This document shows positions 17,930 to 23,923 of a DNA stretch of 64,000 nucleotides, piece after piece. Position 1 is the first letter of the stretch. Every line of letters begins with the position of its first letter. The stretch lies in the sequence record MW882907. One strand, written 5' to 3'. The notes under the pieces are model-generated. The model had not been told where the DNA came from. It ran no database searches and saw only the letters and a program-made list of their open reading frames with translations. Source of the stretch: Escherichia phage vB_EcoM_SQ17. The translations under genes were made by a program, and so were the position numbers.

Positions 17930-18424
17930 TCACAACTTATTAATATTTACTTTAATTCGCTTTCTTTTCTTGGAAGGAATTTGTTCTGGACCTTTATTTA
18001 CGACTGCACCTGTAGTTGTTCCTGATGCAATAGCTTGAGGACTACCGCCTGAATCACCAGCAACCATATCCTCAAATAAAGGGAGTTCTTTAAATATTTC
18101 TTTCTGTTGTTCTTCCGTAATGTTATAGCGTGAAGCTACAGCACTCCAGGCAGACATCATTGAGGCCATTCCATTAAGACCCGGAACAGTGCTCATCATT
18201 CGCTTCATTGAACGAACTGAAGCATGAAAAGGTGTATACGCCGCTTTCTCTTCGGGAGTAGAAGGACGTTTAAGAACACTTCCACGTTCATCGATGATTT
18301 TGGCTTCGTATGCTTTCCATTCGGTAAAAGGTTTTTGCATTAGTCGAATAAACTTATATGCATAAACAGAATCTATTGCAGTGTTAATAATACCCATAGG
18401 TACCTCCTGAGTATATTTAATCAA
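17930..18424 (-). CDS. hypothetical protein (61.1 position)
   Basis: 164 aa ORF. Confidence 0.5.
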   Translation of the reverse strand: MIKYTQEVPMGIINTAIDSVYAYKFIRLMQKPFTEWKAYEAKIIDERGSVLKRPSTPEEKAAYTPFHASVRSMKRMMSTVPGLNGMASMMSAWSAVASRYNITEEQQKEIFKELPLFEDMVAGDSGGSPQAIASGTTTGAVVNKGPEQIPSKKRKRIKVNINKL

Positions 18425-18614
18425 TTACAAAGATTGCTTTGTCACCATTTATATCTGTGACTTCATATGTAGTGCCTTCATACTGTGGAATATTCCAAAT
18501 TACACCATCATTAGCTTTTACGCTAATATGGCATTGGTGTTTTGAAACAACTTCATAATCTTCAAAACTTGTAAAAACACTAATTTTAGAACCAGTGCAA
18601 ATTGCAGTAGTCAT
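18417..18614 (-). CDS. hypothetical protein
   Basis: 65 aa ORF. Confidence 0.4.
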   Translation of the reverse strand: MTTAICTGSKISVFTSFEDYEVVSKHQCHISVKANDGVIWNIPQYEGTTYEVTDINGDKAIFVID

Positions 18615-18615
18615 T

Positions 18616-19275
18616 TTAACCTCGATTCATAAATGCATTAAATATTTGGTCATCAACAGAAATTTCTAATTCGACTTCAATTGCTTCAGCCTTTTCTTCA
18701 GGTGGTAATTCGTATCCACACACTACAATTTTTTCATCGATATCAAAATACACAGAAGCAATATGATTAATGTTATTTTCGGTTAAGTCTAAATCAACAT
18801 CAACATCTTTTTGACCTACACTTAAAGGATAACTAATACGGGTTATTTTATTATCTTTAACAAAGAGTCCACCAACATACTCTGTACTACGTTTGAAGTT
18901 TACACGTTTCCGAAATGAAAGATATGATGCATCTTTACCGTGAGCTCGGCTCATAGGACATAATGAATAACTAGAATAAGAGATGTCAAATCCTACACCT
19001 TCAATATGAGCCAACGTGTCATGATTAAACCAATTATAATCATATGCCAAATCCATTATATTGTAATATGTGAAAGGCACCGGATTAACATCATATGTTG
19101 TACCTTTAAAATCTGCCCAGGCAACGATTTCGTTATCTTTAACAATTACAAAAATTACACCAATATGATATCCGTTATTATTTTCATTCGGCGTTATATT
19201 ATAACATTGTGCATTAGGAAATTTACCATATTTAAATGGCGCATTTTTGTGCATATAATAAATCATATTATTCAC
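18616..19275 (-). CDS. hypothetical protein (61.2 position)
   Basis: 219 aa ORF. Confidence 0.5.
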   Translation of the reverse strand: MNNMIYYMHKNAPFKYGKFPNAQCYNITPNENNNGYHIGVIFVIVKDNEIVAWADFKGTTYDVNPVPFTYYNIMDLAYDYNWFNHDTLAHIEGVGFDISYSSYSLCPMSRAHGKDASYLSFRKRVNFKRSTEYVGGLFVKDNKITRISYPLSVGQKDVDVDLDLTENNINHIASVYFDIDEKIVVCGYELPPEEKAEAIEVELEISVDDQIFNAFMNRG

Positions 19276-19561
19276 CTGTGATTTCGGTTACGATATCTTT
19301 GTTATCGAAATTAGGGTCACAATACAAAACATAATTGTACTGCATGATACCGCCAGACTTAAGTTGTTCAACAACTTTATTAACCATATTAGGACGGTCT
19401 CGTTTAGTGATGTTCATGATATCAGAGAAGATTTGTTGTTCAACATCTTCTTGATTTGCAGTCATTGACCACTCACAGAGGTCTTTATCATAACCTGCCG
19501 TAACTGGAGCTGGTGCACATGATACTGCGAGTAAGATTGCTGCCAATGATAACCTTTTCAT
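19268..19561 (-). CDS. sp: Spackle periplasmic protein (superinfection exclusion, gp5 lysozyme inhibitor)
   Basis: 97 aa; signal peptide then AGYDKDLCEWSMTA ... SGGIMQYNYVLYCD matching remembered T4 Sp. Confidence 0.85.
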   Translation of the reverse strand: MKRLSLAAILLAVSCAPAPVTAGYDKDLCEWSMTANQEDVEQQIFSDIMNITKRDRPNMVNKVVEQLKSGGIMQYNYVLYCDPNFDNKDIVTEITGE

Positions 19562-19624
19562 TTTAACTCCTTAGTTGATTTGATAGGACTACTATACTAT
19601 AGTCCATCTATAATGTAAACAAGT

Positions 19625-19873
19625 TTATTCTTTTTCGCGAATAATAATTACTTGTTGAGGCTGCTGAGCAGATTTCTTTTCGGCAACGATAGACCAAATT
19701 AAAGTTCCAATCCAACCAACCATCGTCCAGTTAAAGAGTAAAGCTACAAAGAAGATTGCTGTTGTGCTTTTTGTGCCACGAATAAGTGCGATTACCCAAG
19801 GCAACATGTAAATGATGATTGAACCAATACCTGCGATTAAAACTGCTACTGAACTAGCCACGAATAATTCCAT
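19625..19873 (-). CDS. small integral membrane protein
   Basis: 82 aa with three hydrophobic segments. Confidence 0.5.
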   Translation of the reverse strand: MELFVASSVAVLIAGIGSIIIYMLPWVIALIRGTKSTTAIFFVALLFNWTMVGWIGTLIWSIVAEKKSAQQPQQVIIIREKE

Positions 19874-19934
19874 GTTAATTTCCTCTTGATTTGTTATGTT
19901 TATAGTATCTTATTTTAACTTTGGTGTAAACCAA

Positions 19935-20303
19935 TTAATTAAATTTGTTTAAACGTTCAATACACTGGACGTAGCTATTTGCGATTTGTTTCTGGGTAGG
20001 CTCTTTACCAGTTGTTTCAACATAGCGAATGAATGCGATTTCAGTAGCCTGTAGACAATGTTCTTTAACGCGTTGTTCTTTTGACAATGCTACAGTATCA
20101 GAATCACGATAACGTTGAGCATGGGCATCAGCTTGAATCATTCGATTACCTACAGTAACCGGGTCTTCCACTTCAACTTTAGGTTGTTCATATTGTTTAA
20201 CATTCGGATTGTAAATCAGTTGGCCGACGTTATTAGGAATAAAGCCGTGGGCACCACATCCGGTTAATCCAAATACCATTGCTAAAGCGATTAATTTTTT
20301 CAT
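19935..20303 (-). CDS. predicted lipoprotein
   Basis: 122 aa; signal peptide with lipobox LTGC. Confidence 0.55.
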   Translation of the reverse strand: MKKLIALAMVFGLTGCGAHGFIPNNVGQLIYNPNVKQYEQPKVEVEDPVTVGNRMIQADAHAQRYRDSDTVALSKEQRVKEHCLQATEIAFIRYVETTGKEPTQKQIANSYVQCIERLNKFN

Positions 20304-20373
20304 TTCAATTTCCTCTGTAGTTGATAGAAAGATAGTAACACAGTATGTGGTGCTTGTAAACAGTTATTTAAAA

Positions 20374-20562
20374 TTATTGAAAATCTGCTTCGAAAACTTT
20401 CTCGTCATTAACAAATGCTTTAACTAATGCGTTGTTCACTTCAGCAAGTTGTACCGTAACCCACTCGATTTCTTCGCGATCACCTGATAACATGATATCT
20501 TTAGTGAACATCTCACCGCTTTTAAACCAACCGATAAAAGTAACTTTAGTTAATTTGTTCAT
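20374..20562 (-). CDS. dmd: Dmd, antitoxin against RnlA/LsoA mRNA endoribonucleases
   Basis: 62 aa; VTFIGWFKSGEMFTKDIM ... NNALVKAFVNDEKV matches remembered T4 Dmd (gene 61.5). Confidence 0.8.
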   Translation of the reverse strand: MNKLTKVTFIGWFKSGEMFTKDIMLSGDREEIEWVTVQLAEVNNALVKAFVNDEKVFEADFQ

Positions 20563-20876
20563 ATTTCCTCACAAAATGCCCATTCAGCGTGATAAACTGT
20601 AGCACCTTTAGTATTATTCATTTGAACTACGTCTACCGGAGAAATTACTCGATAGAGACGTGGTTCACCTCCATAAGAGCGTGCTGCTCGTCCTGCATAA
20701 ATCTTTGCTAAACCGATATCTTCAGTAAAGAATACACGATCCAAGTTTTTCTTACGTCCGGTTTCAGACAGAACTCCTGTTTCCTCAGGAGGACAAAGCA
20801 TGTTTTCGATGTTAGCTGAACTACTTGAACCGTGATAAAAAATCTTAAATTCTGCTTTACAATCGATGGTTTTCAT
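20559..20876 (-). CDS. hypothetical protein
   Basis: 105 aa; contains FYHGSSS motif; ATG preceded by CCAAGAGGAGAA. Confidence 0.5.
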   Translation of the reverse strand: MKTIDCKAEFKIFYHGSSSSANIENMLCPPEETGVLSETGRKKNLDRVFFTEDIGLAKIYAGRAARSYGGEPRLYRVISPVDVVQMNNTKGATVYHAEWAFCEEI

Positions 20877-20964
20877 TTTGTTCTCCTCTTGGTTGGTGTA
20901 AGTACATCATATCATGCCTAGAGGAAGATGTAAACCCCGAAAGGAGACCGAAGTCTCCTTTTTA

Positions 20965-22407
20965 TTAAAATTTTAACTCATTGGCTAAGCTATCTAGGTC
21001 AGCACGTGTTGCTTTGGCTTTACCTACGCGTTCCGTACGATTCATCTCTGCCTGACGCATCTGAGCACCTGCGTTTTCATTTACTGTGTTAGATGTGTTC
21101 ATGCCTTCTTGCTCAATCTCAATCCATTTTTGGTTGCCTTTACGTACACCCATCAGGAATTTATTCCACTTATTCTTATCACCGTATCGTGATTTGATTT
21201 GTTTGATAAGTTGTTGTTCAGCTTGTGCAAGTTCTTCGGTTTCAATTACAGCCAACATGAAATCTGCTGTTGCTGGTAAACCTGCTGATTCTGCAATATC
21301 GCTCATGTTCATATCCGAAGCATCCCATGCTGCACGTCCTACTTGAGCTGCAGTCCATAGAACTGTTTCAGATTCTACTGCTAATGCACGAAGTTCTTCT
21401 GCGATAGCTTTAACTAATGTGTAGCTATTTTCAGTGTAAACTCTGATACGACAAGACCCACAAATACCTAAGTAATCAACCATGATTACAGATGGCACAA
21501 AGTTCTTCTTGAGTTTCAATTCATTAAGCAATGCACGGAATGTATTAGCATTAGCTCCGCCAGTAGGATACTGTTTAACTACTAAACGTCCTAATGTTGT
21601 TTTTGAACGCCATTTTTCCATCTTGGCTTTATATTCGGCATAAGATACGTTACCATCATCGATATCATCGAGCGATACGTCAAGCATGTTTGCATCTATA
21701 CGCTTAGCACAAACTTCTTCAGCCATTTCCATGGAAATATAAAGAACATTATGGCCTGTTTGAAGATAATCTGCAGCAAGTGAACAAAGGCCTAAAGATT
21801 TACCGACGTTAACACCAGCCATTAAAACGTTTAGTGTACCGGTTTCAGCACCACCTTTAGTGATTTTATTCAAAATGTTTAATTTGAACGGGACCTTACG
21901 TGCTTTGTTCAGATAAGAAAGCCAGCGGGCTTCATAGTCTTCCATCCAGTCATGTCCAACATAACTATCAAACGAAATTGAAAGTGCTTGACGCATAATA
22001 TCAGGAATAGCTCCTACATCAGGCATTTTCTTGTTACGTTGTTCTGGAGGTAGTTCAGCATTAGACTGAATCTCAATGATTTTGGATGTAGCATTATACA
22101 TCGCTTTTTGCTGGACGTATTTCTCAGTTTCTTTAACCAACCATTCGTGGTCTTCAGGAGTATCAGCCAATTTTTCAATTAGGTCTGAAGTTCCTTTATA
22201 TTCGGCTTCAGTTAAAGAACTGTTATCTAAAGCCACCTTTAATGCGTTGATAGACGGCATTGCATTATATTCGTTAACGTGGCTCTTTATAATTTTAAAG
22301 ACATTTTTTGCCGGTCCACGCTCAAAATACTCAGAATCCATATAAGGCCAGACCTTAGAAAAATAAGCCTGGTCATATACTAGATGAGACAAAATAATTT
22401 CTACCAC
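20965..22407 (-). CDS. 41: replicative DNA helicase (DnaB-like)
   Basis: 480 aa; Walker A GVNVGKS, DnaB-family architecture; position between gene 40 and dmd as in T4. Confidence 0.9.
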   Translation of the reverse strand: MVEIILSHLVYDQAYFSKVWPYMDSEYFERGPAKNVFKIIKSHVNEYNAMPSINALKVALDNSSLTEAEYKGTSDLIEKLADTPEDHEWLVKETEKYVQQKAMYNATSKIIEIQSNAELPPEQRNKKMPDVGAIPDIMRQALSISFDSYVGHDWMEDYEARWLSYLNKARKVPFKLNILNKITKGGAETGTLNVLMAGVNVGKSLGLCSLAADYLQTGHNVLYISMEMAEEVCAKRIDANMLDVSLDDIDDGNVSYAEYKAKMEKWRSKTTLGRLVVKQYPTGGANANTFRALLNELKLKKNFVPSVIMVDYLGICGSCRIRVYTENSYTLVKAIAEELRALAVESETVLWTAAQVGRAAWDASDMNMSDIAESAGLPATADFMLAVIETEELAQAEQQLIKQIKSRYGDKNKWNKFLMGVRKGNQKWIEIEQEGMNTSNTVNENAGAQMRQAEMNRTERVGKAKATRADLDSLANELKF

Positions 22408-22416
22408 GATAACTCC

Positions 22417-22779
22417 TTAAAAGAATTTAAATTTTTTCTTGGTCCGTTCATTAAAAGCTTGTTGTACTTGCATTGTAACACATTTTTCAACATGTGGCGC
22501 AAGTTCTGCTTTTCTGTCCTGGTCAAGAACTGCAAAGTCCATTACGATTTTACCATCAACCCAGTCTAGTTTTGTAATATAGACTATATGATGGGAACCG
22601 TCTTCAAGTGTAATCAGAATCTCTTGAATGACATTTTCCATTGCTGAACGGACAATTTTAAGAGATTCATTAAACACTCGTTCTTTGCGAATGTCCTCCC
22701 CTTCCAAAGAAGGGGATTCATCAACGATTTCTAGATTTAAATCATCGAGATTATTCATCGAAATCTTCCATTTCGTCAA
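22417..22779 (-). CDS. 40: head vertex assembly chaperone gp40 (by size and position)
   Basis: 120 aa ORF between uvsX and 41. Confidence 0.6.
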   Translation of the reverse strand: MTKWKISMNNLDDLNLEIVDESPSLEGEDIRKERVFNESLKIVRSAMENVIQEILITLEDGSHHIVYITKLDWVDGKIVMDFAVLDQDRKAELAPHVEKCVTMQVQQAFNERTKKKFKFF

Positions 22780-23923
22780 GGTCGTTTTCTATATCTGCTG
22801 CAGACGGAGCATCAGAAGTTTTAACCGGAACTTTAGTTGTTGCTTTGCAATTAATAAGGTCGTTAACAGCGTCATCAACTTCTTTAATAGAAGAGATAGC
22901 ACCTAGTTTATATTTAGTTTCAATTGCATCTCGGAAAGGTTTGTGTTTAAACAACGGTCCCCAGAATTCTACACAATCAGTAGCTTTAGCACGCCATGAT
23001 TTTTCTTCACGAATCATTTCGCCTGTTTCTTCGTCAAGGAATTCTCGAGCATACCACCCTGCTTTAGGCTTAACTACAAAACCAATTTCAGTTGCCATTT
23101 CTAACAAGCCACTGAATGGGTCAATACCGCCATCAAAATTAACCGTGATCGGGAAAGTAGATTTTTCTTTAACGGTGCGAGATTTTTCTGCTTTCAACGT
23201 GAAGTCATAACCGGTCAATTCTGTACCTTCTTTAACCTGACGTTTAGAGATAAAGAATACAGTGTTAGCAGAGTAAAGAATACCTGTGCCACCGCCCATA
23301 ATCTCTTTAGGATATAGTCCGCCGATTTCCATTGCTGTATGGTTGATTGCAACACATGGAATATCTTTAATAGTCAGATAAGGAGTCACAATGCGGAACA
23401 GAGATTTAAGTGCCTTAGCACGAGACATATCACCTACAACTTTCTCGTTCAACGCATCTTCGGTTTCTTTCTTAGATGCAGTATTACCAATCGAGTCGAT
23501 AAAGATAATAACTTTATCACCGCGTTCAATCGCGTCAAGCTGATTAGTCATATCAACTTTAAGTTGTTCGACAGATTGAATCGGAGTATGAACTACACGG
23601 TCTAAATCAACACCCATTGAACGAAAATAAGATTCTGAAGCACCAAATTCTGAATCATAGAACAAACAAATTGCATCTTTATATTTCTTCATATACGCTG
23701 CAACCATAGTTAGTCCAAACAACGTTTTAAAGTGTTTAGAAGGAGCAGCAAAAATAGTTAAGCCTGATTGCAACCCGGCATTCAGTGCACCACCTAATGC
23801 AATATTCAACATCGGAATACGAGTAGGGACTTCATCGCGATTATTAAACAACTTAGACTTAGTCAAGTCTGCAGTCATTTTAGAAGTAGAAGCTTTAATC
23901 AGACGAGATTTTAAATCAGACAT
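22751..23923 (-). CDS. uvsX: UvsX recombinase (RecA-like)
   Basis: 390 aa; N-terminus MSDLKSRLIKASTSK... matches remembered T4 UvsX; RecA core motifs present. Confidence 0.9.
   Translation of the reverse strand: MSDLKSRLIKASTSKMTADLTKSKLFNNRDEVPTRIPMLNIALGGALNAGLQSGLTIFAAPSKHFKTLFGLTMVAAYMKKYKDAICLFYDSEFGASESYFRSMGVDLDRVVHTPIQSVEQLKVDMTNQLDAIERGDKVIIFIDSIGNTASKKETEDALNEKVVGDMSRAKALKSLFRIVTPYLTIKDIPCVAINHTAMEIGGLYPKEIMGGGTGILYSANTVFFISKRQVKEGTELTGYDFTLKAEKSRTVKEKSTFPITVNFDGGIDPFSGLLEMATEIGFVVKPKAGWYAREFLDEETGEMIREEKSWRAKATDCVEFWGPLFKHKPFRDAIETKYKLGAISSIKEVDDAVNDLINCKATTKVPVKTSDAPSAADIENDLDEMEDFDE

Follow-up and report, generated by a model that had tools for sequence, protein, structure and literature searches.

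The 105-aa gene that directly precedes dmd in Escherichia phage vB_EcoM_SQ17 most probably encodes a very small relative of the rifampin ADP-ribosyltransferase Arr. In full, our main reading is that this protein is an early effector of the ADP-ribosyltransferase (ART) superfamily, which would use an NAD+ pocket to ADP-ribosylate a host or defence target independently of the neighbouring Dmd, and we assign this full statement a probability of about 0.5. The ART nature of the protein and its pairing with Dmd are already known as computational predictions in the literature. The present analysis links the protein explicitly to Arr, places its pocket residues in register, notes that the canonical acid and the rifamycin site are both missing, and finds the domain in polyvalent proteins; it also weakens the toxin-antitoxin (TA) reading of the pair by a phyletic survey. 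Literature searches with phrog_2110, RB69ORF040c, and "Arr-like" combined with phage found no experimental work on the 105-aa protein.

The window is the whole stretch of vB_EcoM_SQ17 DNA that was analysed (64,000 nt), and it belongs to a Mosigvirus (RB69-like T-even) genome. An earlier note, made from the letters of the window, placed two ORFs at 20374-20876; both are found exactly within these limits on the minus strand, which carries every gene of the stretch around the pair (Table 1). Escherichia phages 348Ecol098PP, HX01, JK45, and many others share 98-98.6% identity with the 4.1 kb around the ART-dmd pair, and the 503-nt ART-dmd segment is 98.6% identical to that of RB69. The number of deposited Mosigvirus genomes with near-identical copies of the pair is well above one hundred. 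The genes are transcribed in the order uvsX, gene 40, gene 41, the 105-aa ORF, dmd, and then the genes for a DUF5481 lipoprotein, an Imm-like protein, Spackle, and AdfA. The earlier note had named dmd first and had put the pair upstream of helicase 41; as transcription runs, dmd is the second of the two genes, and both come after gene 41. For the small anti-defence island that the note had proposed, the identities of the neighbours (Dmd, AdfA, Imm, and Spackle) are the only pointer to such a role. Two ORFs of 56 and 40 aa on the plus strand of the region lack support and are treated as spurious.

Table 1. Features of the region around the ART-dmd pair, in order of transcription (positions in the window)
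Feature	Position	Strand	Basis
uvsX	22751-23923	-	
Gene 40	22417-22779	-	
Gene 41, replicative helicase, upstream in transcription	20965-22407	-	Pfam DnaB_C, E = 9.6e-18, and annotation of relatives
Predicted hairpin, 9 bp, UUCG tetraloop, just after the gene 41 stop	20940-20961	-	MFE -12.8 kcal/mol, z -2.86
Putative early-type sigma-70 promoter, TTTACA-17 nt-TATGAT, TGn extended -10	20906-20934	-	10/12 matches with TG; consensus match only
Putative Shine-Dalgarno sequence GAGGAG, 6 nt upstream of the ART ATG	20883-20888	-	Sequence
105-aa ART-like gene, RB69ORF040c orthologue, phrog_2110	20559-20876	-	
ATGA overlap, ART stop TGA and dmd start ATG	20559-20562	-	Read from sequence
dmd, 62 aa, antitoxin inhibiting host RnlA and LsoA RNases	20374-20562	-	Pfam Dmd
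DUF5481 lipoprotein, downstream accessory gene	19935-20303	-	Pfam
Imm-like superinfection immunity protein (membrane), downstream accessory gene	19625-19873	-	Pfam
Spackle, downstream accessory gene	19268-19561	-	Pfam
AdfA, anti-DarT factor, downstream accessory gene	18616-19275	-	Pfam

The signals around the two genes point to joint expression. The ART start codon is found 30 nt downstream of the promoter-like site at 20906-20934. The UUCG hairpin at 20940-20961, which is not followed by a T-run, separates gene 41 from the ART-dmd unit and could serve to terminate transcription or to stabilise RNA; an Rfam search of both strands of 18000-23000 returned no known RNA. A GAGGAA Shine-Dalgarno sequence for dmd lies inside the 3' end of the ART gene, just upstream of the ATGA overlap, and this arrangement indicates that translation of the two genes is probably coupled. 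The next promoter-like site (20360-20332) occurs only after dmd, and another early-type site is located at 19930-19902. A single promoter-like site upstream, reading frames that overlap at ATGA, and a next such site beyond dmd together suggest that the two genes form a single bicistronic early unit.

The 105-aa ORF is a real gene, to judge from its distribution and substitution pattern, and it is under strong purifying selection, because tblastn finds it in 609 phage records and its dN/dS is 0.07-0.13 in comparisons with eight orthologues. These records include 215 from Escherichia, 116 from Klebsiella, 68 from Acinetobacter, and 62 from Aeromonas, besides others, and the carriers are T4-like phages of Escherichia, Klebsiella, Acinetobacter, Aeromonas, and Vibrio. 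The protein matches PHROG 2110 (E = 6.9e-60), which is annotated as function unknown; the RB69 counterpart, RB69ORF040c, is annotated as hypothetical, and a few GenBank records label the gene "putative ADP-ribosyl transferase". A direct search with the 105-aa protein gives no match in Pfam, NCBIfam, PADLOC, or the PDB sequences, and the Pfam Arr-ms model does not match it even at E <= 1, its gathering threshold of 25 bits not being reached.

Two alignments were used in the comparisons that follow. The narrow alignment consists of close homologues (the T4-like subfamily), which are uninformative on their own because they are >60% identical. A profile search of 1.84 billion cluster representatives yields a broad family of 229 proteins at E <= 1e-3, and the broad alignment holds 72 diverse members of it. 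In many members of the broad family the domain stands alone, as a protein of 95-140 aa, and others embed it in proteins of 270-3,900 aa; the 105-aa protein is itself very small, its size range being 94-112 aa.

The broad alignment ties the family to Arr. Its comparison with Arr-2 and MsArr by hhalign gives a probability of 96.1% and an E value of 2.9e-9 over residues 8-84 (71 columns), and an hmmsearch of the PDB with its profile returns Arr chains only (2hw2 and 9iaf at E = 3.3e-4, and also 9iba). Pfam Arr-ms is matched at E <= 0.01 by 35 of the 72 members, the best at 1.1e-10, and essentially nothing else is matched; some distant family members exceed the Arr-ms threshold, for example with 29.4, 27.5, and 26.9 bits. 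The link depends on intermediate sequences, because the narrow profile alone reaches Arr weakly, with an hhalign probability of 16%. The connection is transitive yet solid at the level of sequence profiles, and the nearest characterised relative of this phage-centred family is the rifampin ADP-ribosyltransferase Arr. A match of the narrow profile to complement factor I in the PDB (E = 1.7) was dismissed as chance.

The predicted structure points in the same direction with less force. AlphaFold2 models of the protein have a pLDDT of 84.4 with the narrow alignment and of 89.6 (pTM 0.80) with the broad one, and the predicted fold consists of six strands and one long helix (residues 54-68). Foldseek searches of the PDB with the two models give no significant match, the best E values being 0.5 with the narrow-alignment model and 0.18 with the broad-alignment model; the latter belongs to the tRNA 2'-phosphotransferase Tpt1 (7kw8) and is not significant. 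The weak matches with a TMq of at least 0.37 all belong to the ART superfamily and include PltA/typhoid toxin, Arr-2 (0.48), ParT, and cholera toxin A (0.50), and the matches outside the superfamily have TM < 0.26. Among the predicted viral structures of BFVD, the model matches its orthologues and also a phage protein of 94 aa labelled "Rifampin ADP-ribosyl transferase" (E = 2e-8, TM 0.72). A fold unrelated to NAD-utilising enzymes, which the earlier note had named as the outcome that would overturn its proposal, did not emerge, the highest-TM matches in the PDB all being ARTs, but none of these PDB matches is significant. Taken alone, the modelled structure is only suggestive of an ART fold.

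It could be argued that the protein is not NAD-related at all and that its HGS motif and its similarity to Arr are convergent or due to chance in a small beta-rich phage protein. The lack of a direct database match and of a significant structural match would agree with this explanation. We nevertheless consider it highly improbable, since the profile-profile comparison places the common motifs all in register over 71 columns at E = 2.9e-9, half of the members match Arr-ms independently, with E values down to 1e-10, and the weak structural matches with the highest TM are all ARTs. Homology of the 105-aa protein to the ART superfamily is, in our judgement, very likely.

The residues conserved in the family define a candidate NAD pocket. 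The FYHGSSS motif that had drawn attention to the protein is present at residues 13-19. Within it, H15 and G16 are invariant in the broad alignment, as are A57 and Y60 (72/72 each), and residue 17 is Ser or Thr in all 72 members. H15 and G16 close the predicted strand 10-18 and align with H19-G20 of Arr, so that the HG[ST] motif is found at the end of strand 1. In ARTs of the H-Y-[EDQ] type, the backbone of the Gly after this His binds the nicotinamide amide, a Tyr in strand 2 stacks on nicotinamide, and the catalytic Glu, Asp, or Gln is on strand 5. E38, R41, and T51 are conserved in 71, 69, and 70 of the 72 members, and G69 and G70 in 70 and 68; E38 and R41 lie in the D-loop and align with the conserved E-x-G-R of the Arr loop. 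In the register with MsArr, H15-G16 correspond to H19-G20, F49 to Y49 of the catalytic motif, and A57 to A57. The MsArr residues H19, G20, Y49, and A57 line the nicotinamide site, and H19, Y49, and D84 form the catalytic H-Y-D motif of Arr (bioRxiv 10.1101/2025.02.20.639278). The position of Arr Y49 on strand 2 is occupied by Phe in 70 of the 72 family members and by Tyr in 2, so the aromatic ring is retained and the hydroxyl is lost; 11 residues further on, the invariant Y60 provides a second aromatic. The resulting spacing, F49-x7-A57-x2-Y60 or [F/Y]-x7-[A/S]-x2-Y, equals that of Y896/S904/Y907 in PARP1. Because the pocket residues align with those of MsArr and the spacing is PARP1-like, the nicotinamide pocket of the 105-aa protein is plausibly intact.

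The catalytic acid is a different matter. Across the 72 members of the broad alignment, no acid is conserved at beta-5, the position of Arr D84 and of the PARP/DT catalytic Glu. E103 in the last strand is present in all 38 sequences of the T4-like subfamily but in 14/72 of the broad family, and the nearly invariant E38 sits in the D-loop, not at the canonical catalytic-acid site. Of the Arr H-Y-D motif, only the His remains, with Phe in place of the Tyr and no conserved equivalent of D84. The H-Y-E core that the earlier note had read into the HGS motif is not borne out, its second position being Phe and its acid lacking family-wide at beta-5; the underlying suggestion of an NAD-binding ART core gains support from the profile homology to Arr (hhalign 96.1%; 35/72 members with Arr-ms), without the canonical triad.

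These substitutions raise the alternative that the protein binds NAD+ or an ADP-ribose ligand without catalysis and either sequesters NAD-derived immune signals or serves as a decoy or inhibitor of ART defences (DarT, CmdT). A conserved pocket combined with a Tyr-to-Phe change and a canonical acid that is not conserved family-wide would suit such a binder, as would the very small size of these proteins (94-112 aa) and the sharing of the interval with the anti-DarT factor AdfA. An enzyme, however, better explains the invariant H-G and Y and the near-invariant E38 and R41 held in common with Arr, and it also better explains why the module keeps company with enzymatic domains in polyvalent proteins. 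Moreover, mono-ARTs without the Glu can be active, as in the PARP10-type H-Y-I. We regard a non-catalytic role as quite improbable, and the 105-aa protein as slightly more likely than not to be catalytically active.

The similarity to Arr does not extend to the part of the enzyme that handles rifamycin. If the protein were a true Arr orthologue, it would inactivate rifamycin-like inhibitors of RNA polymerase and so protect phage transcription; Arr is indeed its closest characterised relative, and phage-borne Arr genes have been discussed (PMC9503650). Arr contacts rifamycin through N86, the K91 lid, L130, and L133 (bioRxiv 10.64898/2026.05.04.722716), and neither the rifamycin-binding lid nor the C-terminal helix that bear these residues has a counterpart in the 105-aa protein. 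The Arr alignment stops at about residue 84, leaving the rifamycin-contact segments unmatched, and the H-Y-D motif is lost. We rejected a rifamycin-resistance function because the substrate-binding part is absent, and orthology to Arr in this functional sense is scarcely credible.

The domain also occurs in a second setting. Domains of the 105-aa type are found inside giant polyvalent phage proteins of 1,000-3,900 aa, and several of the copies inside large proteins pass the Pfam Arr-ms threshold. The other domains in these larger proteins are ART-PolyVal, NUDIX, GNAT, Toprim, a lambda-type portal, a 2H/Acb1-like phosphoesterase, CHAP, PcfJ, and DUF7178. Polyvalent proteins of phages and conjugative elements have been proposed to enter the cell together with the DNA (PMC5512222).

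The identity of the second gene is certain at the level of sequence. The 62-aa protein matches Pfam PF17587 (Dmd) with E = 1.6e-19 and 70.4 bits against a cut-off of 27, matches PHROG 2102, is 95% identical to the solved Dmd structure 5i8j_A, and matches T4 Dmd in its complex with LsoA (5hy3_B) with E = 9e-17; the Dmd assignment of the earlier note is thus confirmed. By orthology, SQ17 Dmd would act as an inhibitor of RnlA and LsoA.

We surveyed how often the two genes occur together. Dmd is present in 800 phage records, nearly all from T-even phages of Escherichia and Shigella, and the contiguous ART-dmd pair in 215, compared with 609 records that hold the ART gene. About 394 of the 609 ART carriers have no Dmd, and about 585 of the 800 Dmd carriers, T4 included, have no ART. 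Of 66 ART loci from IMG/VR, 10 have Dmd immediately after the ART gene and the other 56 lack it within 3 kb; the ARTs of those 10 Dmd-adjacent loci are all at least 85% identical to the SQ17 protein. The other downstream neighbours of the ART gene fall into more than 20 unrelated clusters, which include small membrane proteins, Cys-rich peptides, and signal-peptide lipoproteins, and a 4-nt overlap with the ART gene is frequent for these unrelated neighbours too. In some close ART orthologues (81-88% identity), the downstream gene encodes a signal-peptide lipoprotein. The position of the ART gene varies as well, being after gene 41 in SQ17 and near srd/rnlB or inh in other genera. None of the neighbours examined in Klebsiella, Acinetobacter, and Aeromonas phages proved to be Dmd-like, as they match neither Pfam Dmd nor an iterated Dmd HMM. 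Where ART and Dmd are both present, they are immediately adjacent and coupled (13/13 loci), and in Dhakavirus-type phages the ART gene is followed at once by two Dmd copies in tandem. An always-adjacent pattern of this kind is also expected of a functional pair.

A pair of ART and Dmd has been described as a predicted phage type II TA system with a "p0068-like" ART family by Iyer, Burroughs, Anantharaman, and Aravind (Iyer et al., 2022, Viruses 14:1977, PMC9503650). The gene neighbourhood and the phage host range (Escherichia, Shigella) match, and the 105-aa family is very probably this "p0068-like" family, because no other ART adjoins dmd here. The TA prediction casts the ART as a toxin that may act on RNA; Dmd would then be the antitoxin belonging to it, besides inhibiting RnlA and LsoA. 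The co-transcription and coupling of such systems are indicated at this locus, which has a single upstream promoter-like site and the ATGA overlap, and the unfailing adjacency of the two genes in the 13 loci and the tandem Dmd copies of Dhakavirus-type phages can also be cited for it. The conserved co-occurrence of toxin and antitoxin families, however, is not seen: Dmd is missing from most ART records and from 56 of the 66 IMG/VR loci, and most Dmd carriers, including T4, do without the ART. A lipoprotein next to orthologues of 81-88% identity could not neutralise a cytoplasmic toxin, and the four-base overlaps, being general in these loci, do not single out Dmd. The obligate relationship implied by the TA prediction is therefore unsupported by the phyletic survey of the 105-aa ART, and we consider a TA pair unlikely, though conceivable for the coliphage lineage. 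The co-occurrence that the earlier note had suggested surveying is real, with its 215 records, but restricted to a lineage (215/609 ART records). On balance, the ART probably does not depend on Dmd, nor Dmd on the ART, and their adjacency is more economically explained by shared early regulation in a variable accessory region than by a TA relationship. The 105-aa protein probably acts independently of Dmd.

In the reading that we prefer, an early ART-superfamily effector working apart from Dmd, host RNA polymerase would transcribe the ART-dmd unit immediately after infection from the early promoter, which is predicted by its match to the consensus. NAD+ would be bound by H15-G16 at strand 1, F49 on strand 2, and A57 and Y60 of the following helix, and the ADP-ribose would be moved to a host or host-defence target other than rifamycin, which may be a protein, RNA, DNA, or a small molecule. 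E38 and R41 of the D-loop might have a role in substrate binding or catalysis. Dmd, presumably made by coupled translation, would separately block RnlA and LsoA, and the two genes would be neighbours because both are early accessory insertions in the variable 41-to-61 interval of coliphage genomes. A bolder version, which we put forward tentatively and hold to be doubtful, makes the protein an atypical enzyme with the smallest ART fold known to be catalytically active (~95-105 aa), its essential acid being relocated to the D-loop (E38, together with R41). T4-like phages and elements bearing polyvalent proteins would use it during the first minutes after infection to ADP-ribosylate a nucleic acid of the host or a component of its defences, and Dmd would be an unrelated neighbour.

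The gene deserves attention as it is under strong purifying selection in more than 600 T4-like phages of at least six host genera and has a predicted early promoter. If the protein is an active ART, the host-takeover and anti-defence repertoire of T-even phages would include, beyond Alt, ModA, and ModB, a fourth ART class unrelated to these three, and the protein would define a minimal ART scaffold. The phyletic data also suggest that the published TA reading with Dmd may be wrong.

Compared with known systems, the 105-aa protein is closest to Arr (Pfam PF12120 Arr-ms; PDB 2HW2, 9IAF, and 9IBA). Each is a small, single-domain protein, and their motifs are homologous and in register over ~75 residues: the HG[ST] strand, the D-loop E-x-G-R, the aromatic-x-T strand, the pocket-floor Ala, and the GG/GRG...V-x-P-x-G strand. 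They differ in length, the phage protein having 105 aa and Arr ~143-150 aa; the alignment ends at about residue 84 of 105, with nothing equivalent to Arr residues ~90-143, so that the C-terminal 55-60 residues of Arr, which form the rifamycin lid and cleft, are lacking. Their contexts differ as well, phage early genes and polyvalent proteins on the one side and antibiotic resistance on the other. The second gene of the unit is a clear orthologue of T4 Dmd (gene 61.5; PDB 5HY3 with LsoA), at an equivalent position after the gene 41 region; the T4 gene adjoins gene 41 with no ART in front of it, whereas in SQ17 the ART gene lies between them. Finally, ART-PolyVal (PF18760/Tox-ART-HYD2) and T4 Alt, ModA, and ModB resemble the proposed effector in being ADP-ribosylating phage proteins deployed at the start of infection, and ART-PolyVal even shares giant proteins with the 105-aa-type domain. 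ART-PolyVal is nevertheless a different family, with an H-Y-D motif and ~140 aa, and the Alt and Mod proteins have R-S-E; unlike those effectors, the 105-aa protein would be made from an early gene and not packaged.

The small accessory units ART-dmd, DUF5481 and Imm-like each have their own early-type promoter match upstream. Because the promoter-like sites in the region total 4, with 3.7 expected from shuffles and thus no excess, it is the placement of these three matches, not their number, that is suggestive. A UUCG hairpin directly follows gene 41, which encodes the replicative helicase, and folds with an MFE of -12.8 kcal/mol (z -2.86). Since no T-run is found downstream of this hairpin, a role in RNA stability or processing may be likelier than one as a terminator.

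Features of the region, in window coordinates
Feature	Position	Strand	Remarks
Hairpin, 9 bp, UUCG tetraloop	20940-20961	-	AAAGGAGAC-UUCG-GUCUCCUUU; directly 3' of gene 41 stop codon
Early-type promoter match, TTTACA-17-TAnnAT	20934-20906	-	precedes ART-dmd
Early-type promoter match, TTTACA-17-TAnnAT	20360-20332	-	precedes DUF5481 gene
DUF5481 protein	19935-20303	-	lipoprotein-type signal MKKLIALAMVFGLTGC
Early-type promoter match, TTTACA-17-TAnnAT	19930-19902	-	precedes Imm-like gene
Imm-like superinfection-immunity gene	19625-19873	-	
AdfA (anti-DarT factor A), full-length	18616-19275	-	Pfam E 2e-121; four genes downstream

Like the DUF5481 gene, several genes downstream of ART in other phages encode signal-peptide proteins, and this cluster of envelope-directed small proteins adjoins cytoplasmic anti-defence genes. 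For AdfA, the literature describes the R164 allele (RB69) as inactive and H164 alleles as active against DarT1.

In Dhakavirus-type phages, two Dmd paralogues lie in tandem directly after ART. An additional ORF of 110-113 aa in two other loci matches a Dmd HMM (E 3.5e-21 and 4.6e-9), and these matches suggest larger proteins with a Dmd domain. Among the compared loci, these paralogues and ORFs are located at L006 2819-3217, L015 3532-3873 and L019 3498-3830.

An Arr-like domain also forms the C-terminal end of a 271-aa protein in another compared locus (L068, 2509-3324). Only 20 nt separate its gene from the next one, which encodes a Thg1-like tRNA-His guanylyltransferase (Pfam E 9e-28); L069 is a further example of this arrangement. 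The polyvalent protein P0167 combines a portal, this Arr-like domain and a 2H/Acb1-like phosphoesterase in one chain. This neighbour and this architecture hint at a context of RNA-end or ADPr-phosphate chemistry.

The interval holding ART, dmd and the Imm-like gene is a hot spot for indels; in HX01 relatives it additionally contains a 124-aa ORF and a DUF7279 ORF. The gene order in T4 (L073, 16877-24047) is 41 > dmd > 61.4 > sp > 61.2 > 61.1 > 61; compared to T4, the window phage carries ART as an insertion ahead of dmd, and the Imm-like gene as another that separates the DUF5481 gene from sp.
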